DNA of 63,523 bases, filler included, from Folioceros fuciformis (Eukaryota): assembly GCA_049999805.1 (NCBI GenBank). It is 17 parts of 17 records of this genome, joined end to end, with 100 filler letters (N's around TTAATTAATTAA, not from the genome) between each part and the next. Parts side by side here need not be neighbours in the genome. Positions count along the whole stretch, not along the records: positions 50,334 to 52,336 come from JBNGIO010003297.1; 16 more parts are not named here. One strand, written 5' to 3'. Position numbers and translations under genes: made by a program. Of the stretch, positions 15,691-52,517 are shown piece by piece. The notes under the pieces are model-generated. The model searched no databases and had not been told where the DNA came from. It worked only from the letters and a program-made list of their open reading frames with translations. Each line of letters opens with the position of its first letter. Positions within the stretch are counted from its first letter, which is position 1.

Positions 15691-15884
15691 GGCCCGGTAA
15701 CAGACCTAAACTTTCCCAGATCTGGAACCAGACCTGTACCCACTTTAATAACCAAACCAACTATTTCNNNNNNNNNNNNNNNNNNNNNNNNNNNNNNNNN
15801 NNNNNNNNNNNTTAATTAATTAANNNNNNNNNNNNNNNNNNNNNNNNNNNNNNNNNNNNNNNNNNNNCGGCCGGAGCGGCTGGG

Positions 15885-15995
15885 GGCTTGGTGCCCCCGC
15901 GGTGGGGCGGCCGGGGATCTAGCGCCCCCGCTGGCTGGGCCCCCGCGGTGGGGCAGCCGGGGATCTAGCGCCCCCGCTGGCTGGGCCCCCGCGGC
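15885..15995. repeat. GC-rich tandem repeat, ~46-bp unit x2+
   Basis: GGGGATCTAGCGCCCCCGCTGGCTGGGCCCCC repeated. Confidence 0.75.
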
Positions 15996-16172
15996 CTGGC
16001 GCGGCCTGCACCCTGAGGACTTTAATAACCCTACAGTGTATACCTTGTTTGGCCTTGGTGTGGTTAAGCTAGTGTGCTCCCTAACTTTGGAATGGTTGGA
16101 AACAAGTTCTATATGCACATTGCGTTCGCTGATAAACTAAAAACGTTTGCAGGGTGGTGAGCAATGCCTTCC

Positions 16173-16440
16173 TTATAGTCTTTTAAGTAGGTTTGAGGCT
16201 TCTCCCATCACTTTTTTCATGCTAAACTCCTCTTGAGTTAACCTCACAAAATCCCTTTTGGCTGTGAAAGCTGTTACCCATGTCTTACAACTTGAATTTG
16301 CAAGCAACAACTGTAAATGATAGTGTAGCCTACCACTTACAACTTTCTTACACTTTATGCACCAACCATTTTGGGCAATCACCATGAAACCAGTATCACA
16401 CTCTCAATACACATGTGAGCTTGCATCATAATCCTCGGCA
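16173..16440 (-). pseudogene. Possible RPA1 (RPA70) C-terminal OB-fold/zinc-ribbon-like fragment
   Basis: GWCIKCKKV...HYHLQLLLANSSCKTWVTAF resembles the RPA1 DBD-C pattern W.C.KC...RY.L...I.D.T...WVTAF. Short and degenerate. Confidence 0.35.
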
Positions 16441-16859
16441 ACCACGCACAATGGTATATAACTAAGTTGCATGGGTTCTTCTTCTTCTAACTAAGCAACC
16501 AGCACTTAGAGATCAATCCTCATTATGCATTAGGAAGCTTGCTTTCAATGTGCATTGCTATGTTGTCCTCTCAAAACAGAGGCAAAGTAACTTGATACAT
16601 GAACTTGTTCAAAATTGCTTGCCAACAATGATATATGCTCAACCTTGGCACCAAATGTTGATGCCTATCATATTTACGAGACATACATTTATGATTAATG
16701 GCAAGGAATGGAGGGATCATGCCCTATACAGTGCTAGCTTGTGTAAGTTGTTACCGAAACCCGGACAAGTGAAGCTACTATCATGGTTTTCATGACCTTC
16801 TAACCCAAACCTTGACAAAATATGGCAAACAATTGGTTCAATGGTGCAACCAAAGAATT

Positions 16860-16931
16860 CACCCTAAACCTTAAACCTTAAACCTTAAACCTTAAACCTT
16901 AAACCTTAAACCCTATACCCTATACCCTAAA
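16860..16931. repeat. Interstitial telomere-like array (AAACCCT/AAACCTT/ATACCCT 7-mers)
   Basis: CCCTAAA CCTTAAA CCTTAAA ... CCCTATA CCCTATA CCCTAAA, about 10 units. Confidence 0.85.
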
Positions 16932-17711
16932 TTGGTTGAATGGTGCAACTAAAGATGTCATCATCATGAATGCAATACAATAAGCTGATGTGAAGAATGT
17001 TAAGTTGCCCCTTAAGATTTCATGTCTAAAGTTAATAGTGCCTAACACTATGGGTAGTATTATTATGGTAAATAAATAAAATAAAAAGAAATATCTAGTA
17101 ATGTACTCATATCTAAGAGACATGCACCACATAAATAAAGATCATGCATTTTTTATATATTTGCATGCTCTTAGAAGATTAAGCAGAATAACTATTTGTA
17201 TAAGTTTCAATGCTGACTCAAGTCATTTGAAGTTGTACATGTACTACTGTCTCAACCAGTTGACTTGTATCACATAAATCTGCAAATGGAAATCTAAAAA
17301 TATGAAAAAGAGACGCCAAACGTTCTTGCAAAGTCTCTTTTCGAAGAGTCTTCATGTTTGCGCACATTTTGGTTTAGGACACGGTGGAACACGGAGGGCC
17401 TGAGATGAGATGCACACAGTACTGCCCAACTTATAATCTTAGAAGCAAGCAAGTACATCACACCACACCTACCGCACCCGGGCCTGAGCAGATGCAATGA
17501 ATGTGGCAATGTAAGTCCAGGTGCAGTCCTCGTGTTTGCAGCTTGCAAAGAGCATGATTTGTGGGATAACAAAGAGATAAAAAATGGCTCTCCGGATCAG
17601 TGTGAATGCACCACACAATGTGTGCCAACAGGGATCCCAAGCCCAGAAATCAGTTTGTAATCCCGTTGCATCACAGCAAAAATAATTCCAGCCTCGACAG
17701 GGAGAAAGGGA

Positions 17712-18650
17712 TGTTAGAAACCCATAGGGTTTTGTAACAACACATCTAGACTAGAATGTTGTAAGTATATCCCAGGACATATAGGATAATACCATGGTCG
17801 AGATATTGTTTATCCACAACGAGGTATTGTCATGCTTGAAGGCTATATATGTATGTATAGGTTATCAATCTAAATGTAATGAACTAGAGATTGATCTTGG
17901 GACTCATTGTTTTCAACATGATATCAGAGCCCAAGTACTCAAGTTTAGGAGATGCGTAGAGTACTCGGCACTACCTTGTATAGAACTATCTTTCCTTGCT
18001 TCTCTTGCTTAGTGTGGCTTCGCAGACTAGGTGTTTGTAACAACTTGTGCAAGTTCGTGAAGCTTAGTGATAGTTATTGGTGCGAGGAAATCATCTTATT
18101 TATTCGCTTATTACGCGAGCATGGATACTATGCGTCTTGTAGAGAAGTTTGATGGCAAGAACTTCACATCATGGAAGATGAAGTTTAAGGCTCTTCTGAC
18201 TGACAAAGGATTGTGGAAGTATGTTCAAGATGGACTTCCAGCAAATCATACACCAAAGGATATGGACAACAATGGTAGGGCTTTGGCCAATATAATCTTA
18301 TACCTAGTAGATAGCATATTCCCTAAACTGAGTAAGTGTTAGACTTCACGTGAAGCATGGGAAACATTGTGTGACACCTATGAACAAAAGAGCTTGGCAA
18401 ATAATATACTGCTCGAATGTAGACTCTCCTCATTCAAGATGGCTGAAGGTGATAGTATTCAAGACCACATCAACAAGCTAGAAAGCTTCGTAAACGAAAT
18501 GAGAGGCAAACATTGAACCCTCATAAGGCAAGATGATCACGACGTTGTTGTATAGCCTGCCACAATCATACAAACACTTTCTGGTATCCTACAGGTCATC
18601 TATAGCTATGAACTCAAACCATTATCAACCAACATTCAATGAGGTGGTGT
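17712..18650 (+). mobile_element. 5' fragment of a copia element: 5' LTR (17712-17918), PBS (17919-17931), degenerate gag
   Basis: TGTTAG...TCAACA, then TGATATCAGAGCC (tRNA-iMet PBS with one change), then EKFDGKNFTSWKMKFKALLTDKGLW and FKMAEGDSIQDHINK. Confidence 0.85.
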
Positions 18651-19666
18651 CCTGCGTGCATCACCGGCTGTTGGGCACACAAGGTACGTGCATCTCACGC
18701 TCCAGACGGGCCCGGCCTTCAGCTACAACAAGAAAACAAGGCAAAAAGGAAATTTTGTCCATGCCACACAGACAAGCCAGCAGCTCTCATGTGTGCTGTG
18801 GCGCACTTCGGTGCAAATACAAATCAAAAGGGCTGCCCTCCACGGGCTGCCTAGAGTTGGTAAATCCGTGACCTGCCGCAACACCCACACACATTGCAAT
18901 CGTTTTGAGCCACATGCACACCAAAGCCTTGCATTCCCAACAGAAATTCAGCAACATTCCCTTTTCATGGACTTCGACAACTGGTTGTTGCAGCTGCCAT
19001 TGCCAGTCTTGAGGTCTTGGCCGCCATCATGAGCTAGCACCTCCCTCTCGGTGTGATGAGGCCACCACCTCGCGTGATCCTTTGGCCGTTGCAGCAGCGG
19101 GCTGCATGATGTAGCCCACGAGCCACCTGCCAGGTTTGCAGCCCTGGTTCTAGAAATGACCTAAATGGCCTAATAACCTATCCGGATAATGTCAGCTAAA
19201 TAGCTTCATATGGGGTAAGCTAATTAATAGCTATTTCCTANNNNNNNNNNNNNNNNNNNNNNNNNNNNNNNNNNNNNNNNNNNNTTAATTAATTAANNNN
19301 NNNNNNNNNNNNNNNNNNNNNNNNNNNNNNNNNNNNNNNNCTAAGCCATGACACCAAAAGAGAATCTGACAATAATAATAAAATAGTATAGTCTTCTTAA
19401 AAATACATAAAGAGATCTTAATGAACCATAGTTAACCACCTAACCCAGGTAGGTTTACTAACCACAGGTTAAGTTATATACCAACACTCCCTCTTAAACT
19501 ACCAGGGTTGAGTACCATCCATATCTCCAAACCGCGCGCGCCAAATTAAGAAGAAGCCACGAGAAGAAAACCCTCAGGCTTCAGCAACGAATCTCAGCGC
19601 GTGTGACTAACACCGTGCCACCCACCAGAAACAAGAGAAGACGGTCTGAATTCCAAGACGGAACAC

Positions 19667-20233
19667 ATGGAGCCTACCGCGTGTGATGTATTAAGCTGGC
19701 TCTCAACTGGTCTTGCGGCAACAGCACTTCTGATTTCCACCTTAGTAGCTTGGAAGATGGCGCGCACACACCCGAACAGCGGACTGACAGCCCAGACAGG
19801 ATAGACGCCACCACAAGCACATGCTGAAGAAAGCTGCATCACCACTGAAGCAGACAACAGCTCCAAGGAGAAGAAGACTCGATCGCACTCTCCAAGCAAT
19901 TCGGCTGAATCTGCAAGACGGGAAGCAATTCAAGCAGAAATGGCAATGCTCCGAAAGGCTGACTTGGAGCTATTACGCCATCTGCGCAGGACGGCTTTAA
20001 AGTGTGAAGAAACTCAGGCAGCCATGGAGACAGCACGAACAAAAGTTTTGGAGCTCAGAGACATGCTGTCTACAACACCTGAGAACTGTGGTTTTGACCT
20101 CCCTCTTACACTGGACGAGCTGACGGCTATAATCGAAAAACTAGAGCAACTGGGATACAGTATGACGGACACACCCACGATTAAATTCTGCAGCTACGTT
20201 TCATCCACTGAGTGTGACCAGGATAGCTTGTGA
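19667..20233 (+). pseudogene. Antisense accessory ORF (188 codons, one TAG): N-terminal hydrophobic helix + Ser-rich linker + coiled-coil
   Basis: ATG at 19667 is in frame with listed ORF 19940-20233. It reads MEPTACDVLSWLSTGLAATALLISTLVAWKMAR..., has a single TAG at 19802-19804, then ...ARREAIQAEMAMLRKADLELL... Confidence 0.55.
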
Positions 20234-20340: not shown

Positions 20341-23300
20341 TCATGTCTTAAATAAGGGTAGTGAAAACTCTCTTAGCCCCATTGCTGCGAGATGCTGGTA
20401 GTGTTTTGACTGTGGCAGAGCTTTGGTCATAATATCAGCTGTATTAAAATCTGTGCTGATGTACTGAACAATAGCTATGCCTCGTTCTACCACGTCTCTT
20501 ATATAATGATAATAAAGCTCGATATGTTTGGTACGAGCGTGGAACCGTGGATTGGAAACTAACGCAATTGCAGACATGTTATCGCAGTGAAGTAAAGTTG
20601 GGCCTGGCTGATGTAAGTGAATTGCTGCTACGAACTGTCTTTCCCACTCTAACTCCTTGCAAGTATTAGTGAGCGACTTATATTCAGCTTCTGTAGACGA
20701 AAGAGCCAAAGAAGTTTGCTTTTTGCATGACCAGTTCACAACACCAGAAGCCAGGAGAAAAACATAAGTGGACAGACTGCGTCGAGAGTCCGAATCAGCA
20801 GCCCAATCAGCATCAGAAAATGCTGTAAGTGTAAACTCCCTCTGTCCGCTTGATGTGTAATGCAAACCATAGGTCAAAGTTCCTTTCAAGTATCTGTAGA
20901 TTCGCTTTACAGCAGACTAGTGAGCCTTGCCAGGATTTTTGAGAAATTGGGATACTATGCTCACTGAATAACTGATGTCTGGTCTTGTCCAGTTAGCCAG
21001 AAAAATGAGACAGCCCACGGCTTCTGCGTAGGGAACTATCTCTATGAGAAGCACATCAGAAGAAGTTTGAGAAGAATGATCAACAGTAAGTTTTACCCCA
21101 GCTGCAGAAGGCGTGGAAATAGGTTTAGAACCGTCCAAGTGAAAACGTTTAAGTATTTCTTTAATATATTTTGTTTGATGAAGAATTATAGACTTGGACT
21201 GTCTATCACGCAGGATCTGCACTCCCAAACAATACTGCAAGGGGCCTTGATCCGTCATCTCGAACTCTGAACGAAGAAGGTTCTTAACCTTATCCAAGTG
21301 GGCCATCTGGTCACTAAGTAGGATGGCATCGTCAACATAGAGTGCCAAGATAACAAAGGAAGACCCAACTGGAAGATAGAACACGTTTGAATCTGCAGGT
21401 GACTAAGCAAAACCATGTTGTTTAAGAAATGCAGTAATCCGTTTATACCATGCACGTGGGCTCTGCTTAAGCCCATAAATTGTCTTTAAAAGCTTGCAAA
21501 CCTTATTAGGATGTCGTCCATCAACAAAACCCTCAGGTTGGTCAATATATAGGACCTCTTCAAGCTCTCCATGCAGGAAGGTGGTACATACATCCATTTG
21601 ATGGAGTTCAAGATCAAATTCAGCTGCCATGGCAAGAAGAATACGTACCGATGGAGGTTTGACTACAGGGGAAAACGTATCCCCATAGTCAATACCAAGT
21701 ATTTGCGAAAAACCTCTCGCCACCAGTCTGGATTTGTAATGAGCTATAGTCCCATCTGCCTTCAGCTTGGTTTTAAAAACCCATTTGCATGATATAGGTT
21801 TACGTCCAGAAGGAAGATCAACCAATTCCCAGGTATGATTTTTAACCAGCGAATTGTATTCATCATCTATAGAAATTCTCCAATGAAGGCCATCAGGGCC
21901 ATTCAAAGCTTCTAAGTAACTTTGTGGATCTGGCCTGACCTCAGGAACATGCAAGTCCACAACATGAGCTGAAGATCCTCGAAAATCAGCAGCTTGATAA
22001 GGGGCTTCAACCCAGTCAGTACGAGCTCTTCTCTCACGAATGGGATACCGCGGTGGTGGATCAACTGCTGGTTCAACCTCTGCTGGAGTCACAATAGAAG
22101 CTGCTCCCTCTAAACCGGGAGAATTAGAAGGTACATGCTCAGTATCACTGGTCACTGATTCTGCATTGCTTGCAATAGAGGGACCATCAGAAAACACGTC
22201 ATCTGCAGGGTCGGCAGTAGCCACATCTGAAATATCAGCTCCAGGTAATGATGCATCTCCTATATTGTGGTTAACAGCAGAACCATGAGAGTCAGCTTGA
22301 TCTGTAGCAATAGGGTCCCCATCTGAAACAAGATAAAGTGCTGGAACTGACAGGTGTATTGAATCAGAATCAAGAGGCAAATCCTCAGACCTGTTAGCGG
22401 AATTTGGATTGTCAAACTGCTCAACTACAGATGCTGATCGAGGAGACAACAATTCCTTAAAGGTAGCACTCCGAGAAAGAACAATCTTCTTTGAAGTAGG
22501 ATCTAGTAGTTTGTAGGCCTTTGATTCCTCTGAGTAACCCACAAAGACAAGTGGCTGAGACCTATCATCTAATTTGTCTCATTTGGGTTCAGGAATATAA
22601 GCATAGGCCAGTGAGCCAAATACTCTAAGATGTAAAAGACTAGGCTTACGACCCCACATAGCCTCATACGGAGTACGGCCTACCACAGCTGAAGTGAGAA
22701 CTCTGTTTAGAGTGTACGTGGCATTGACAATTGCTTCAGCCCAATAAGCTTCCGGAAGTGCTGACCAGGATAACATACTGCGAACCATGCCCATCAAGGT
22801 TTGATTTTTCCTTTCTGCCACTCCATTCTGTTGCTAAGTGTAGGGAATTGACAGCTGCCTGGTAATCCCATATTGCTGAAGCAATTCATCGAAATTTCTG
22901 CCAGTGAATTCACCACCATTGTCAGTCCGAAAACATTTAACCAGTTGTCCAGTCTGTCGTTGAATCATTGGAATCCAGGTTACCAGAACATCATACACTT
23001 CACTTTTCAACGCCAAGGGAAAAGTCCAAGTGTAACGAGAATAATCATCTATCAAAGTGAGGTAATACTCTGCCCCTCCAAGTGATTTGATGGGTAACTT
23101 GCCAGCAATGTCCGCATGAATCAAATCAAGAATTCCTCTTGCACGTGTTGCAGATTTATTGAAGAAGGGGAGTTCCTTCTGCTTAGATAACACACAAGAG
23201 TTGCAGACAGGCAAATGCTTGAAGCAAGAGGGAAGACTCTCTCTAAAACAATTAGAGTGTGATATCAAATCCAACTTGGAACGATTGATATGCCCAAGAC

Positions 23301-24927
23301 GGGCATGCCAAAGGTGAGCTTGAGCACTAGCAAATGACAGAAAAGCCCTAGCATTCCTACTAGTAACTGCATCTAACTGATATAGATCATCAACTAAAGT
23401 GGCTTTTGCTATATAATTATCCGGATTAGACAAGAGATAAATATAGCAGGACTTGGCTTCAAAACGAAATCCATATCTGTTACTGTGAACAATTGCACGT
23501 ACTGACAACAAATTCTTGCTCATATCAGGAACATAAAGAACGTTGTCTAGCACAAGAGAGGATCCATCCATCAGAGGTAGCTGCACCAGACCTGATCCTT
23601 TAACATGCAAGCCTCTGGAATCTCCTACAAACACAGATTGAGGAGTGGACTGTGGATGAAGAACTGAGAATTGGTCACGGTTGTTGCAGACATGAGTTGT
23701 TGCTCCAGAATCAACAAACCAATGGGACAATCCTTCAGTAGACGAAGTGAGACAAACTGTCAAGGCAGTACTGCTACTCCGAGGTAAGGATGACGAGAAG
23801 CCTGAACTTTTAGAGTCCTTTGAGGCAACATTAGCGTCAGGCTTAATTTCTCGTTTTGGTACTCCAGCCTTTTTCTTCTTACAGTCTCTTTCCCAGTGAC
23901 CTGATATACCACACCAGTTGCAACTACCCTGGCGCTTAACAGAAGAGGAGGAAGTTGAGTCCACAGAATTTACAGGTTGAAACATCTGTTGCTGTTGTTT
24001 TCCTTTGAATTTACTCTTCCATGGTCCTTTAGTTTTAGCATAAAGAACCTTCTCACCCTTAAGGCGAGAAGAGCCTGATCTGTGATGGCTCTGTTCTTCT
24101 TGCAGAAGAGCGCCGACAACCTCATTTAGACTCAAGGTTGTGGGTCGATTAGCAGCCACAGCCTTGTAAGCATCTCTCATAATTGAGTTCTGACTAGATA
24201 CGAAGTTTTGATAAGATAAGTTTTGACAAGCTAGATAGCAATTGAGCAGTCGCGCCCAACTCAGTCATCGTGCTATCCAATGCCGCTAGCTGAGCCCGTA
24301 GGTAACGCAGACGAGTGACGTGTGCTCCAACTGAATCTCCTTCCTTCAATCTTAAACCAAAAACTCGCTTCTAGCAGCAACTAACGTCAAAATGTTCTGA
24401 ACTTGATAGGTATCCTTGAGTTGACTCCAAACAGCAGCAGCAGACCCAAGAAACTCAACCTCCGTAACCATTGTTTCGTCCAGTCCTGATAAGAGAATAG
24501 CAAATGCAACCTTGTTCCCTTTGTTCCATTTCGCTATCTCATCTAATAATCCCATAGGTGTTGTTTTGGAAGGATCAGGAAAAGAGCCATCAACATATTC
24601 CCAAACATCTCGAGCATCAAGGTAAGCTTTCATCCTTGCTTTCCATCCTTCAAAACGTCCAGGTTTACCATCGAACCGGTCTTTCTCTTTAAAGTCACCT
24701 CCATAAGTTGATGTAACAGCGGCTGTAGATAGACCAGATGACAAAGAAGAACTAGCCATGACAACTACCTGATGTGGCTGATTAGCTGTTGAAGGTGTGA
24801 CAGACACTTGTGCAGAAGGATTAGGAGTGTTGAATCCAAGCTCTTCTACAGGATCTGTTGACAAAACTAAACGCGAGAGGGACTCTGACAAAGTGTCAAA
24901 ATCCAAAGGATCAGGATCCTCGTCCAT
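20341..24927 (-). pseudogene. copia gag-pol polyprotein with stops and a frameshift
   Basis: Gag, zinc knuckle CNWCGISGHWERDC, protease WFVDSGAT, LWHARLGH, integrase IDDYSRY/RTDNGGEF/AERKN, RT YKSRLVARGF/LYVDD, RNase H FSDADWAAD...RTKHIE. Confidence 0.95.
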
Positions 24928-25207: not shown

Positions 25208-25717
25208 TCATGCACTCCAGTGTTTGGGCGATGTCGCCCTGATCTCTGAATTCGCAGTAGCAACTGAAGCATGTACAGAACAAGCACAGTTCCGAACTAT
25301 AGGTATGTTTGAATTGGTCACTGAACTGATAGCATGTGTCTCTTTGCCACAATCCTTAAGCAGTGAGGCAATTCCACACTCAATATCATGAAGTTGAGTC
25401 GCCACCACTCGTTGGCTATCCAGAATACGCCGCAGCAGGAAAGTTATAGAATCCAATCGTACATTTAGATTAGCCACTGCAGGATCAACCACCTTGTATC
25501 TGATTCGTCCTTTACGAGCCCCTAGGGACAAATCTCTTGTAAAAACATCATCAGAGAACGAAGCAGACGGAAAATCATGCCAGTGCAGATGTGTATTCAG
25601 TCCTGAATTTCTCCGAAACTGAAAAGGCCTATTAGGCAAGTAATCCCGATGAGAAAATTGCCTAGCCAGAAACTAGGGCAGCGATTCCGTTGAGAACCGC
25701 TGTCTGCCCCGTGCCAT
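25208..25717 (-). pseudogene. ORF0: 169-codon accessory ORF between PBS and gag (one TAG)
   Basis: ATG at 25717 is in frame with listed ORF 25208-25639: MARGRQRFSTESLP*FLARQFSHRDYLPNRPF...PAVANLNVRLDSITFLLRRILDSQRVVATQLHDIECGIASLL... Confidence 0.6.
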
Positions 25718-26077
25718 TAACACATCTAATTAAGAAACATCTAAACATCAATCGATTCCATAAAATTCCACAACTGCCTAAAGAAAAGTTTTACTAGATC
25801 ATAGCAAACACGCGTACACCTATTAAAGAAGACAGACTACACAAAGAGAAACTGTCTCTAACCAAGGATGTGCAAAGAAATTCATGGCTCTGATACCATG
25901 TTTGGCGGAAGCATGAAGATTTACAAGACACTAAGCCATGACACCAAAAGAGAATCTGACAATAATAATAAAATAGTNNNNNNNNNNNNNNNNNNNNNNN
26001 NNNNNNNNNNNNNNNNNNNNNTTAATTAATTAANNNNNNNNNNNNNNNNNNNNNNNNNNNNNNNNNNNNNNNNNNNN

Positions 26078-43894: not shown

Positions 43895-44109
43895 GGCTCG
43901 TAGCCGCACAATGGCGTAGCAAAGTTGCACACACACCTATGCCATACCACTACCCTACGCTCCACATTCATCACCACCGCCCTACTCTCCATCACACCTA
44001 TGCCATACCACCACCCTACGCTCCACATTCATCACCACCGCCCTACTCTCCATCACCACTGCCCTACGCTCACCATCGCCGCACGCTCACCTATGGAAGA
44101 AGTAGGGAC

Positions 44110-44491
44110 GGTGTGTGTGGTGTAAGAGGGTATGATTGAGCAATATGATTGAGTGGTGCGAGAGTGATAAGAATGATGTAGGAGTAGTATGATTGTGTGG
44201 TGTAAGAGTAATATGATTTAACAGTATGATTGAGAAATATGGAGTTATACGACTAAGTGGTGTAGGGGCTATATGATTATGTAGTGTAAGAGCAATATGA
44301 TTGAGCGATATAGAAGTTATATGAGTGAGTGGTGTAGAAGTGATATGACTGAGTGGTGTAAGAGTGATATGATTGAGTGGTGTAGGAGTGATATGATTGA
44401 GTGGTGTAGGAGTCATATGATTGAGTGGTGTAGGAGTGATATGACTCAGTGGTGTATGAGTTATATGATTTGATGTAGGAGCAATGTAAGA
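44110..44491. repeat. Degenerate 24-bp minisatellite
   Basis: TGAGTGGTGTAGGAGTGATATGAT units. Confidence 0.85.
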
Positions 44492-44790
44492 GTGAAACAA
44501 AGCGCCAGGGAGTGGTATAAGTGCATAGATAAGTATCTGAAATCGATAGGGTTTGTACAAAATCCTGGAGATGCAAATGTGTACATTTACCTTAAAGATG
44601 GGCATCTTGTCATCCTGGCTCCATATGTCGATGATGCCATCCTTGCGTCAAATAGTCCTGAGCTGTTAGAATGGGTCAAAGGAATGTTACACAAGCAGTT
44701 CGACATGAAGGATATAGGACAGCTTACCTTCGTGCTTGGTGTACAGCTGGTGAGAAACAGGGCAGATAGATCTATAGTCCTGCATCAAAC
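44492..44790 (+). pseudogene. copia RT fragment (KQS...YVDD...LHQT)
   Basis: KQSAREWY...HLVILAPYVDDAIL...FDMKDIGQL. Confidence 0.85.
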
Positions 44791-49136: not shown

Positions 49137-50233
49137 GTTGGCCGTGGACCACAAACTGGATGTCTCCCTCTTTGAGGGACTGGTTGCCAGTGGTGTGGAA
49201 TACAAGTCTCTGGAGGTTCAAAGGAGAATGAGACCAACCATATCATCCCTCCTAACGCCAATCTATCCGTACCTCACAGACGATCCTTCGGTCAGCGCTT
49301 TCCCCGATGTGCGTGGTATGAAACATAATGTGTACTTTGTAGATCACCAGGAGGAGGAGAGCTCCGTCAGGGATTCAGACAATGGGTCTAAGGTGAACAA
49401 GGAGGAGGCAAAACTGATCGTGGAACTTTGCACCTACCTTTTGAAGCAGGACTGCTATTGTGCGAAGGACATCACAATTTTAAGCATGTACACCGGCCAG
49501 GTAAACAGCTCACAGATGATGTACAGTTTGTATCAAAGGAGACTGAGCGCACACAATCCTTTCGGTGCAGTAAGTTGGGTGTCCCTGACAAACTCGTTTG
49601 ATGTTCAGGTGGAAGAAATCAGGCGTCTCCTGAATGTGCGCGTGGGAGGTAGATGCCGGCCAAGGGCGATTGCAGCCGGGCATCCTAACCAGCAGGGTGA
49701 TTTGCCCAGAGTCACAAGCGTTGATGGTTTCCAGGGAGAGGAGAGCAAGATCGTTCTTCTGTCGTTGGTGCGGAATAACAAGCATGATAGGACTGGTGGA
49801 ATAGGGTTCCTCGACATACACAACAGGGTCTGTGTTGCCCTTTCCAGGGCAAAACATGGAATGTATATCTTCGGAAATGCAGATCTTCTTGCTGCGTGGA
49901 GTGAAATTCGGGGCACAATCACCGGAAACCTCCGACATTCCGGCCTGCTGGGCGCACAGCTGATCCTGTGTTGTCAGAATCATCCTGAGAGAGAGACCAG
50001 AGTGACACGAGCTGTTGATTTCACACAAGTTGAGGATGGGGGTTGTGGTCAGCCGTGCGAGTTCCAGTTACAATGTGGCCATGTTTGCCCTCGGCGGTGC
50101 CACCCTGGTAGCAATCATGAGCAAGCCGTCTGCTGTGAAAGCTGCTCAAAGCAGCATGAAACCTGTGAGCATACTTGTTCAAGGATATGCCACCATGGAT
50201 CTAGCTGCCCGCCCTGCACAGTTCTCATGAAAA
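49137..50233 (+). CDS. ZNFX1: ZNFX1/Hrr1-like SF1 (UPF1-like) RNA helicase with NF-X1-type zinc fingers, internal fragment
   Basis: LDVSLFE, VQRRMRPTIS, SKVNKEEA, ITILSMYTGQ, VDGFQGEE, LSLVRNN, RVCVALSRAKHG, then Cys/His repeats CGQPC...CGHVCPRRCH. In-frame 108-bp GT-AG intron at 49501-49608. Confidence 0.85.
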
Positions 50234-50333: not shown

Positions 50334-51719
50334 GACATGAAGGACGTTCAACAGCTCCAATTTCCTCCCATGATGCAGCTACAAGGTAACCTTCCCTGTC
50401 CCTGCAATTGGAAGAGTGCTATCATCTCCAAGGAGTACTGACTGTACATCTTGATAATGCTGGTAATCACAAAACTGTGCACGATCATGGCAGATGTGCG
50501 CCGATGCACCCGAGTCTATGAACCAAGCAAGAGTGTGAGGGCCAGATGTTGTAAGACACACAGTCAATATGACCTGTGTCGGCTTCTTCCTAGAAGCTTG
50601 CACAGCATGTGCTTCCGGAGAGCCAGCACTCTCCTTTCTCGGCTCACCAGCTTGTCGCTTGCGACAATCTCGAGCCCAGTGGCCAGGTATGCCACACCAG
50701 TTACAATTTCCAGACTTTTTCTGATTACTTGAGCCTTGACCAGGTCCACTGAAATTGGACCTGCCGCCCCTGCTTGCACTCCAGCCTCCTCGTCCTCTTC
50801 TGTAGGGCTTGCCCCTACCAGCAAAGAGGGCTTGCTGGCCCTGCACTTGCTGTTTCCCAGAGCGAGAGGACAGCTGAGTTGCTTCCTCTTGAAGCATAGC
50901 CCCCACCACACCGTTAAATGTAAGGGGTTCAGCGTCAATCTTCAAAGCCTTTGAGAGACGAGCTTCGACCTTCGCCATGGCTTGCTGGCCGGTGACAAAG
51001 GGCTCGTAGCTCGGAGGAAGTGAATTCAACAATCTGCAACTGGCATCATAGTCGGTAATCTTCGTTCCTGTAGAACTTAGCTTGGCTCGGGCAATGCGAA
51101 AACGTGCAACATAGTGCTCCACTGTCTCACCCTCCTGCATTCTAAGAGAGTGGTATTTTGCTGATGCAGCCATGGAAGCCGCCATATCGTGGGATGCAAA
51201 CATCGTCGCCAGGTGCGTCCACATGTCCATGGCAGAGTCCCCAGGCCCATCGGAGGCTTGCCTCATCATCTCTGGAGACAAACCTGATCTAATCAGGTTC
51301 TTTGCTCGGATGTCAGCCAAATGCCAAACCGGCATGTCTGCGGAGGTTACATCAGGTTTGAGAGTCTCCCCATTCACCATGTGCCACAAATTCTTTTCTT
51401 CAAGTGTGCCTTGCATGCGCATCGCCCATATATCGTATTCGCTTCCAGTAACAAGGTGGTCCTTTTCCTTAAACCCGCCACTGGTAAGAGATTGAAGTGC
51501 CTGGAGCACATCCTCCCTCGCTTTGTTGTCTAAATCACCCATTCTTCTACTTGGATCTGACCAGTTGGTAGCTACTGACGCTCGTGCTGAATCAACATCC
51601 GTGCCCCCCGCAGACCTAGTGTCTGTGTTTAAATCTTCGTCATCAAGGTCTATCAGACCAGCTTCACTTGCAAGATGCTGCAGCCAGGTGGGCGTCCTGT
51701 ACAGCCCTTCTTCACTCAT
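50334..51719 (-). pseudogene. copia gag-protease
   Basis: YDIWAMRMQGTLEEKNLW, LRMQEGETVE, LLNSLPPSY, CNWCGIPGHWARDC, WFIDSGAS. Confidence 0.92.
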
Positions 51720-51734
51720 CAGCAGCTATCATTT

Positions 51735-52253
51735 TTAGACTCGACTTATTCGCTGTTGACACTGTGTGCAAATATTGTGATTTTGTTGGGTAGCAAGTGA
51801 CTCTAAGATTTTGGTTTGTTCCTGGATTTGCGGTTTTGCAAGAATGAACAACTTAGCATCTACTTGCTGCAGGTGGGAGTCAAGTCTAGTGATCTGGTCA
51901 GTAAGACTATCTAAGGTTGACAAGATGTGTTGGGTGCGACAAAGTGCAGTGCCGTTTATGTTATCCAGACGCTGGGTAAGGTGCTGCACAGAGGCAGTGA
52001 GAGACTCTTCCCTCTCCCTTCTCAAAGACTCAACCTGACGACACGCTGATTCTCTACGACTGTTCGCTAGAGACCTGCAGTAAGCATGAATGCTCGGATT
52101 GGGAGTGGCAAGGTGTGGAATTCTCTCAAGAAAGTTGTGCGGCCTACTGACGTGCTATCCCCTTGGTGAAGGGATGTTTGTGACTTCGTAAGGTGGGACT
52201 GTATGGAAAACTCTTCGCTGGTTTCCACGGCTGTGCCTCTGGCGTGGTGCCAT
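51735..52253 (-). pseudogene. ORF0: 172-codon accessory ORF immediately upstream of gag (one TAG)
   Basis: ATG at 52253 is in frame with listed ORF 51735-52025, with a single TAG at 52155-52157: MAPRQRHSRGNQRR...ASVQHLTQRLDNI...LDSLTDQITRLDSHLQQVDAKL...CTQC. Confidence 0.6.
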
Positions 52254-52517
52254 CTTCAAGCACCAGACTGGTTTTTGTTTGACATTTGTGCAGGCGCAAC
52301 TGCGCACGCCTTCCTCTCCGCTATTCTGAGGTTAGCNNNNNNNNNNNNNNNNNNNNNNNNNNNNNNNNNNNNNNNNNNNNTTAATTAATTAANNNNNNNN
52401 NNNNNNNNNNNNNNNNNNNNNNNNNNNNNNNNNNNNGAATCAGATCACAAGCCAGAGTCGGAGACGCGTGCACCTACCTCAGCCGATCCTGACATAAGTC
52501 TGAGATTGTAGACGCGC

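Follow-up and report, generated by a model that had tools for sequence, protein, structure and literature searches.

In a window of 63,523 bases from the genome of Folioceros fuciformis (GCA_049999805.1), made up of 17 short contigs joined by N44-TTAATTAATTAA-N44 linkers, a small open reading frame (ORF), here named ORF0-2, lies directly upstream of gag in a long terminal repeat (LTR) retrotransposon of the Ty1/copia type, which we call element 2. We regard ORF0-2 as probably a real, fast-evolving 5′ extra ORF of its copia family, and the balance of the sequence evidence favours its being, or having recently been, a coding gene of the element. Its product is probably a 172-residue orphan, modelled as an Arg/Pro-rich, basic N-terminus of ~50 residues followed by an amphipathic helix of ~120 residues. 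A coding role is favoured because the only in-frame stop of ORF0-2 is private to the window copy, the one internal indel listed in a diverged contig is a net +3, its hydrophobicity follows a helical period and a long helix is predicted with confidence.

The leader frame of element 2 and its other copies

The host of ORF0-2 is a Ty1/copia LTR retrotransposon, identified by its copia-type Gag, its zinc knuckle and its Pol β-barrel. All relevant features are read on the minus strand of a 2003-bp contig (50334..52336). Gag matches the Pfam family Retrotran_gag_2 (PF14223; E 5.5e-27; 94.8 bits, cut-off 27), with a Pol_BBD domain after it (2.1e-11); the CCHC zinc-knuckle pattern CNWCGIPGHWARDC is seen at the end of Gag, where the zf-CCHC model scores 20.7 bits, slightly below its cut-off of 20.8. 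Since one end of the contig lies 83 nucleotides (nt) upstream of the ORF0-2 start codon, the LTR and the primer-binding site (PBS) of element 2 are outside the visible sequence, as are integrase, reverse transcriptase and the polypurine tract (PPT), the contig ending at 50334 and 52336. A first-pass annotation of this DNA had described a 172-codon ORF with one TAG that ends 15 bp ahead of the gag ATG, and translation of 52253..51735 on the minus strand confirms this description. The terminal TAA occupies 51737..51735 and the gag ATG follows 15 nt later at 51719, the junction reading TAA-AAA-TGA-TAG-CTG-CTG-ATG.

Other copies of element 2 are available from sequencing runs, referred to as X1 to X4. 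Two DNA runs of one sample contain 79% and 77% of the sampled words of the element 2 contig, and the run contigs were compared with 50334-52336 at a likeness of at least 80%, with 40 of 415 differences listed. At position 52157 all contigs carry another letter than the window copy (depth 70.5/70.5 over two contigs in X1 and 35.6/35.6 in one contig in X2), and codon 33, which is TAG in the window copy, is a sense codon (Gln) in the X1 and X2 contigs. One of the two X1 contigs is diverged by ~15%, with 33 differences and 3 gap letters over the 225 nt of 51992..52216, and because even this diverged contig has the sense codon, the TAG of ORF0-2 is private to the window copy. The same holds for the premature TAG of gag (50381..50379), which every contig of X1, X2 and X3 reads as a sense codon. 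The window copy of element 2 is decaying, ORF0-2 and gag each carrying a nonsense codon. The runs whose contigs have gag open at its stop site also have ORF0-2 open at its own. Seven of the nine differences found only in the window are C>T or G>A on the window copy, a pattern typical of deamination in a silenced copy.

Among the differences listed, the indels within ORF0-2 in one diverged contig are +1 after 52043 and +2 after 52045, a net change of +3, and a 1-nt deletion at 51751 in a diverged contig falls in the fifth codon before the ORF0-2 stop. The first-pass annotation had proposed a conserved accessory gene of this copia lineage; within family 2, the private stop and the net +3 indel among the 40 of 415 differences listed would suit conservation of the frame, and a gene conserved across the lineage is no more than a possibility.

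The rate of divergence is also informative. Across ORF0-2 the diverged contigs differ from the window at 33/225, 30/266 and 55/469 positions (11-15%), and across gag at 38/371, 27/264 and 20/176 positions (10-11%). With 18 of the 40 listed differences set aside as occurring in X3 only, 11 of the 13 non-fixed gag substitutions among those listed are synonymous, from which it follows that the subfamilies diverged under purifying selection on gag and that neutral sites lie well above 10%. Since this is so, the ORF0-2 region, at 11-15%, appears to be constrained, well below the neutral rate implied for gag third positions.

The hydrophobicity of the whole ORF0-2 product has its best period at 3.65 residues (p 0.0145; scan of periods 2-7, 2000 shuffles). 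A period of 3.5, that of a canonical heptad coiled coil, is not significant (p 0.71 for the whole protein and 0.23 for the segment), and the 3.65 peak is nearer to an 11-residue repeat, in the layout of which positions 3, 7 and 10 are hydrophobic. AlphaFold2, given the single sequence of residues 34-172, returns a mean predicted local distance difference test score (pLDDT) of 90.7 and one helix of 119 residues, which spans model residues 20-138 at pLDDT 88-98, the first 20 modelled residues scoring 59-66. Residues 1-70 carry a net charge of +8 and have an isoelectric point (pI) of 11.6, with 15.7% Arg and 12.9% Pro, while the protein as a whole is Thr-rich and contains 11.6% Arg, 9.9% Gln, 9.9% Leu and 8.7% Ser (pI 10.2, net charge +9). 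There is no membrane-spanning hydrophobic stretch in the ORF0-2 sequence. At the codon level, G+C content by codon position follows the same order as in gag, and the ORF0-2 frame is the sole one of the six with a positive, if weak, codon score.

The runs yielded some further observations on element 2. On 50334-52336, run X3 shows G>A at 156 places and C>T at 43, a strong excess, and looks bisulfite-converted, so its conversion pattern might report on the methylation of the element. A contig of X2 with a depth of 14.5 joins 50492 to 52273, omitting 1780 nt that include ORF0-2 and gag; as its ends are not GT..AG on the sense strand, the join is better read as a deletion derivative or a chimeric contig than as a spliced form. 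Run X4, which we guess to be RNA, gave a single contig, ~80% alike, that covers parts of gag only.

The leader frame of element 1

A frame of similar position, ORF0-1, is found in the leader of a second copia family in the window, represented by element 1. The two frames had been presented as parallel, and the parallel holds in part, for position upstream of gag, length (172 against 169 codons), charge layout and a central amphipathic helix; it does not extend to sequence similarity. As a single gene traced by sequence the pair is not supported, the BLASTP E being 0.96 and the alignment scores lying within the shuffled range (global z 1.08, p 0.14; local p 0.43; 1000 shuffles each). The strings quoted in the first-pass annotation are all present (MAPRQRHS and MARGRQRFS, SVQHLTQRLDNI and AVANLNVRLDSI, CTQC and NCAC); the shared N-terminus, RLD.I motif and Cys pair read from them do not rise above chance by shuffled alignment scores. 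The relation of ORF0-2 to ORF0-1 is one of position and architecture only.

Each of the two products has a net charge of +9, nearly all of it (+8) within the first 70-75 residues, the remainder contributing +1; a basic charge of this kind is to be expected from random translation of such DNA. The amphipathic helix starts near residues 75-80 in both. For ORF0-1, AlphaFold2 gives a mean pLDDT of 39 and a helix of 43 residues at pLDDT 50-60, against 119 residues in ORF0-2, and the hydrophobic period is a heptad-like 3.55 (whole-protein p 0.06) against 3.65. Within its residues 75-130, a segment picked after looking, the a/d occupancy is 0.81, reached by 0 of 5000 shuffles. ORF0-1 ends 280 nt before gag and in a different frame.

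As the first-pass annotation had stated, the two Gags differ greatly (29% identity, E 2e-43), share the CNWCGI.GHW.RDC knuckle and have an acidic N-terminal extension, of net charge −9 in each. With the Gags only 29% identical, a faster-evolving partner would be undetectable by sequence, as reported for the ORF0 of Retrosat2 (PMC3485330), and homology of the two ORF0s is therefore not refuted; common ancestry of ORF0-1 and ORF0-2 is a real possibility, although the less probable case. In both Gag N-termini (51450-51719 and 24703-24927, minus strand) the acidic extension is ~75-90 residues long and precedes the conserved core; of 24 distant copia loci, 19 have their first in-frame ATG at most 30 residues from the Gag core.

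The in-frame TAG of ORF0-1 is absent from the earlier description of that frame. One stop per 169 codons in ORF0-1 compares with 8 per 1528 in the gag-pol of element 1, where the remaining two sense frames hold 66 and 131 stops in 1528 codons, and this stop density is in favour of ORF0-1 having been coding. Element 1 has integrase following protease, and its 178-bp LTR, PBS and PPT are present; the PBS presumably reads as the 3′ end of initiator tRNA-Met. The decay of its gag-pol is by point substitution only, its leader between PBS and gag is unusually long at 958 nt, and the two ends of its contig (19341-25977) share 47 identical bases, the two LTRs having been collapsed by the assembler. 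Neither the element 1 nor the element 2 leader has a second copy within the window.

Homologues, a possible mechanism and rival explanations

Searches for homologues of ORF0-2 returned little. No Pfam family was found, only sub-threshold coiled-coil noise; among PDB sequences the best E was 0.23, and a Foldseek comparison of the single-helix model with the PDB gave 0 matches. The sole HMMER match, a 2774-aa tandem-repeat protein in which a 20-residue stretch was matched 16 times, was rejected as an artefact (BLASTP E 1.1), and the top score in the protein atlas, 0.85, is a lead only. Viral contigs searched with element 2 gag and with ORF0-2 gave no match. A search of metagenome contigs with an alignment of four Gags found 80 copia loci, all of them distant (20-32% in most rows), and tblastn of both ORF0s against the 473,618 nt of these loci reached best E values of 1.7 and 3.9. 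ORF0-1 had no match in the word-indexed search, no usable atlas match and no Pfam family, with a best PDB E of 0.23. As a calibration, a search with element 2 gag among proteins of 245-781 aa yields only one at E ≤1e-10, with 24% identity. As Gag itself is nearly unmatched, the lineage is absent from protein collections and the blanks obtained with the ORF0s weigh little.

We suggest, with due caution, how ORF0-2 might work. An A at −3 and a G at +4 form a strong start context, and this is the context of the ORF0-2 ATG, the gag ATG having C at −3 and A at +4. These contexts suggest that scanning ribosomes start at ORF0-2 and that it serves as the first translated cistron of the genomic RNA. 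The gag ATG, in a weak context and 15 nt beyond three stops, would then have to be reached by termination-reinitiation or leaky scanning. Between the two starts there are 3 ATGs in 531 nt, against 7.1 expected (p 0.07). The ORF0-2 protein may bind nucleic acid through its basic part and self-associate through its helix, it could act on the element's own RNA in packaging, chaperoning or export, and it might dock on the acidic N-terminal extension of Gag. This specific set of functions is at best doubtful. The roles put forward in the first-pass annotation, RNA binding, targeting or anti-silencing, are likewise conjectural. In a broader scheme, which we hold to be similarly speculative and unlikely as a whole, both copia families would have inherited an ancient, very fast-evolving first-cistron gene, with an Arg-rich tail and a long oligomerising helix, that works with the unusually long acidic Gag extension, gag being translated by termination-reinitiation; the copia lineage would then be bicistronic and have a protein of its own for handling its RNA. 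By analogy, that protein could be likened to ORF1p in LINE-1 or to the Rev-type proteins for retroviral RNA. Such a lineage, if true, would have been missed so far since surveys counted only extra ORFs of at least 250 codons.

A number of observations weigh against ORF0-2 being a gene. It has no homologue among 1.84 billion representatives in a full HMMER search and no match in a word-indexed protein search. Its codon score is 0.035, compared with 0.21 for gag, and the score is partly circular, since stop-containing frames are penalised. Composition, pI and charge are close to what random translation yields, and the protein-atlas recognition score of 1403 is below the 2300 reached by 91 of 100 known-family proteins. 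A low-depth X3 contig has a 1-nt deletion at 51911, inside the frame, and near-identical contigs have up to two more ORF0-2 differences beyond the 40 of 415 listed, which could be stops. A third, more distant copia 5′ region in the window (contig 15868..19240) is without a comparable frame. Lastly, a 172-codon first cistron with a strong start would hinder the translation of gag unless a special mechanism exists.

One rival is that the 5′ leader is non-coding and its open frame due to chance, RNA signals acting in cis (for packaging, dimerisation or reverse transcription, for example) being the source of the apparent conservation, an explanation that we consider unlikely but far from negligible. 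Against 2000 dinucleotide-preserving shuffles of the leader (617 nt in element 2 and 1050 nt in element 1), the stop-free run of at least 139 codons in element 2 has a modest p of 0.03, which suits a chance origin, while, if up to one stop is allowed, the run reaches at least 198 codons (p 0.004); the run of at least 154 codons in element 1 has a p of 0.01. Either frame alone is only mildly unusual, but chance is a less easy account of two such frames that share the sense orientation and the leader position in related elements. The sequence upstream of gag was surveyed in the 24 of the 80 metagenome copia loci in which the match reaches the Gag N-terminal region (windows of up to 1.5 kb). On the antisense strand, 6 of these 24 windows contain an ORF of at least 100 aa and 1 contains one of at least 139 aa, the latter in agreement with the shuffle background; these counts favour the chance reading. 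On the sense strand, ORFs of at least 100 aa are present in 10 of the 24 loci, 3 of them being pol fragments of a preceding element, and the survey gives no signal of a shared ORF0 upstream of gag. Chance would also fit the random-like composition, the low recognition score and the lack of homologues, as well as the behaviour of an unrelated multi-copy copia family from the metagenomes, the LTR and leader of which are open in some copies (L033, L037, L030) and not in others. It would not explain why one decayed copy alone has the ORF0-2 stop and why the internal indel listed is a net +3, why the hydrophobic period falls exactly in the helical range, for which non-coding sequence offers no reason, or why the helix is modelled at such a high pLDDT, and a second family also has an open leader frame on the same strand. 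Moreover, Tandem Repeats Finder reports 0 rows over 51700..52336, the leader has no Rfam match, and its RNA is not unusually stable (z −1.25; a gag control of the same length has −0.40), so that a purely RNA-level explanation gains no support.

A long upstream ORF might instead matter through its translation and not through its peptide, throttling or timing the translation of gag while the frame stays open and the sequence drifts. The strong start of ORF0-2, the weak start of gag, the stop cluster 15 nt before the gag ATG and the scarcity of ATGs between the two starts would all agree with such a role, as would the lack of sequence similarity between the frames of the two families. However, a drifting peptide would not retain an amphipathic helix of ~120 residues, and the geometry is not shared by element 1, where the frame ends well ahead of gag and 12 ATGs occur in 787 nt, which makes this explanation improbable. 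Gene capture by LTR retrotransposons is documented (PMC7264820), but it is very improbable that ORF0-2 arose by capture of part of a host gene or of some other mobile element, given that no similarity was found in the 1.84 billion representatives, in Pfam or in PDB sequences and that the window holds no further copy outside the element.

We return to ORF0-2 as a probable coding gene. If it is translated, small first-cistron genes exist in Ty1/copia too, in a simple design of basic tail plus helix, and how gag is translated 15 nt behind a long upstream ORF becomes a concrete question. If it is not, it serves as a caution that leader frames can look gene-like from a single copy.

Known systems, coordinates and neighbouring observations

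That plant LTR retrotransposons can carry extra ORFs on either side of gag-pol is well established (PMC7264820). REXdb (Neumann et al. 2019) records extra ORFs (eORFs) of at least 250 codons in 582 Ty1/copia and 3372 Ty3/gypsy elements; they fall into 45 and 314 mutually dissimilar groups, respectively, with a known domain in 21.4% only (PMC6317226). Such ORFs are common in LTR retrotransposons and almost none has a known function; ORF0-2 is probably an orphan example of them and not a new kind of system. ORF0-2 resembles the class eORF-5′F (PMC6317226) and the 5′ additional ORFs (aORFs) of Vicient and Casacuberta (2020; PMC7264820), which lie on the sense strand between the 5′ LTR and the polyprotein and are orphans with no conserved domain and strong divergence between groups. 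As in the definition of eORF-5′F, it is upstream, forward and outside the polyprotein ORF, with three stops between, and does not arise from tandem repeats; its length of 172 codons, however, is below the at least 250 of that definition, and it would escape that catalogue (PMC6317226).

Among chromoviruses, 5′ ORFs are typical of the Tekay group, which includes Retrosat2, RIRE3 and RIRE8 (PMC3485330, PMC11728184). Between rice and sorghum, the ORF0 of Retrosat2 has ~10% similarity against >60% for ORF1 (PMC3485330), and the protein of a sunflower Tekay 5′ aORF is described as having a basic stretch like a nuclear localisation signal, a few helices and long disordered parts (PMC11728184). The ORF0s of Retrosat2, RIRE3 and RIRE8 and the Tekay 5′ aORF (PMC3485330, PMC11728184) are, like ORF0-2, located upstream of gag-pol on the same strand and have no homologue outside their family, and ORF0-2 resembles the Retrosat2-type ORF0 in evolving much faster than the polyprotein. 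The hosts differ: the Retrosat2-type proteins, compared here by description only, have ~400 aa and belong to Ty3/gypsy chromoviruses whose LTRs measure ~3 kb (PMC3485330, PMC11728184), whereas ORF0-2 belongs to a Ty1/copia element and has 172 aa, and the LTR of element 1, from its sister family, measures only 178 bp. The Drosophila MDG1 group also has small forward ORFs before gag, sORF1 and sORF2 (~110 and ~70 aa), the functionality of which was, as for ORF0-2, first inferred from substitution patterns (bioRxiv 10.1101/2025.03.14.642691). MDG1 elements, however, are insect Metaviridae, and sORF2 is described as similar to fusion-associated small transmembrane (FAST) proteins (bioRxiv 10.1101/2025.03.14.642691), unlike the ORF0-2 product, which is without a membrane-spanning stretch.

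No description of a small 5′ ORF in a Ty1/copia element was found in the literature searched, the REXdb supplements on eORF positions being outside the search, and this is the whole basis for calling ORF0-2 undescribed. LINE-1 ORF1p is a first-cistron protein, in which a coiled-coil oligomerisation helix is combined with basic nucleic-acid-binding parts, and the next cistron is reached by unconventional reinitiation. It and ORF0-2 would be alike only if the function suggested above holds, and by analogy only; ORF0-2 differs in having no RNA recognition motif (RRM) or C-terminal domain and no Pfam match, and in the class of its element.

Positions of the leader frames, their parts and their neighbours in the window
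Feature	Position	Strand	Description
ORF0-2	51735..52253	−	172 codons + TAA; upstream of gag, same frame as gag
In-frame TAG, codon 33 of ORF0-2	52155..52157	−	only in the window copy
N-terminal part of ORF0-2, residues 1-52	52098..52253	−	Arg-/Pro-rich, basic, scant predicted structure
Predicted single long amphipathic α-helix of ORF0-2, residues 53-171	51741..52097	−	AlphaFold2 model and hydrophobic period
Stop cluster TAA-AAA-TGA-TAG and 6-nt spacer ahead of gag ATG	51720..51737	−	
Upstream mini-ORF	52256..52285	−	9 codons; ends 2 nt before the ORF0-2 ATG
gag of element 2	50379..51719	−	446 codons to premature TAG (50381..50379); frame continues to contig end
ORF0-1	25208..25717	−	169 codons + TGA; TAG at codon 15; leader of the other copia family
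PBS of element 1	25886..25898	−	directly after the 178-bp LTR (TG..CA); ORF0-1 is internal and starts 169 nt downstream
gag-pol of element 1	20341..24927	−	1529 codons, one frame, 8 internal stops, no frameshift

Two other readings of the ORF0-2 region were rejected. A read-through fusion of ORF0-2 with Gag is at odds with the three stops within the 15-nt spacer, despite the shared frame. A PBS at the start of ORF0-2, where TGG follows the A of the ATG, is disfavoured because the preceding bases are unlike an LTR end, and also because the PBS of element 1 sits 169 nt upstream of its own ORF0.

Among the metagenome loci, ten (L006, L007, L009, L010, L014, L027, L030, L031, L033 and L037) are copies of one multi-copy copia family, and eight of the ten have the same Gag start motif. 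Some copies of this family have an LTR and leader that read open in frame (234 aa in L033, 143 aa in L037) and others do not; in L030 the copia element sits within the reading frame of a leucine-rich repeat (LRR) protein.

Three other frames in the window deserve mention. A 142-codon stop-free frame (19805-20233, plus strand) runs antisense to element 1 between the end of pol (~20341) and the PPT and 3′ LTR (~19490), a position like that of the antisense extra ORFs of some plant elements; its translation is helical-looking and has no Pfam family. A 172-codon ORF at 44087-44605 (minus strand) encodes a degenerate, low-complexity peptide repeat (..NHITPTPL..) and is unrelated to ORF0 despite its equal length. 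Finally, the open frame at 49228-50233 (plus strand), on a contig of its own, contains many Cys/His motifs and looks closer to a host gene than to a transposon gene.

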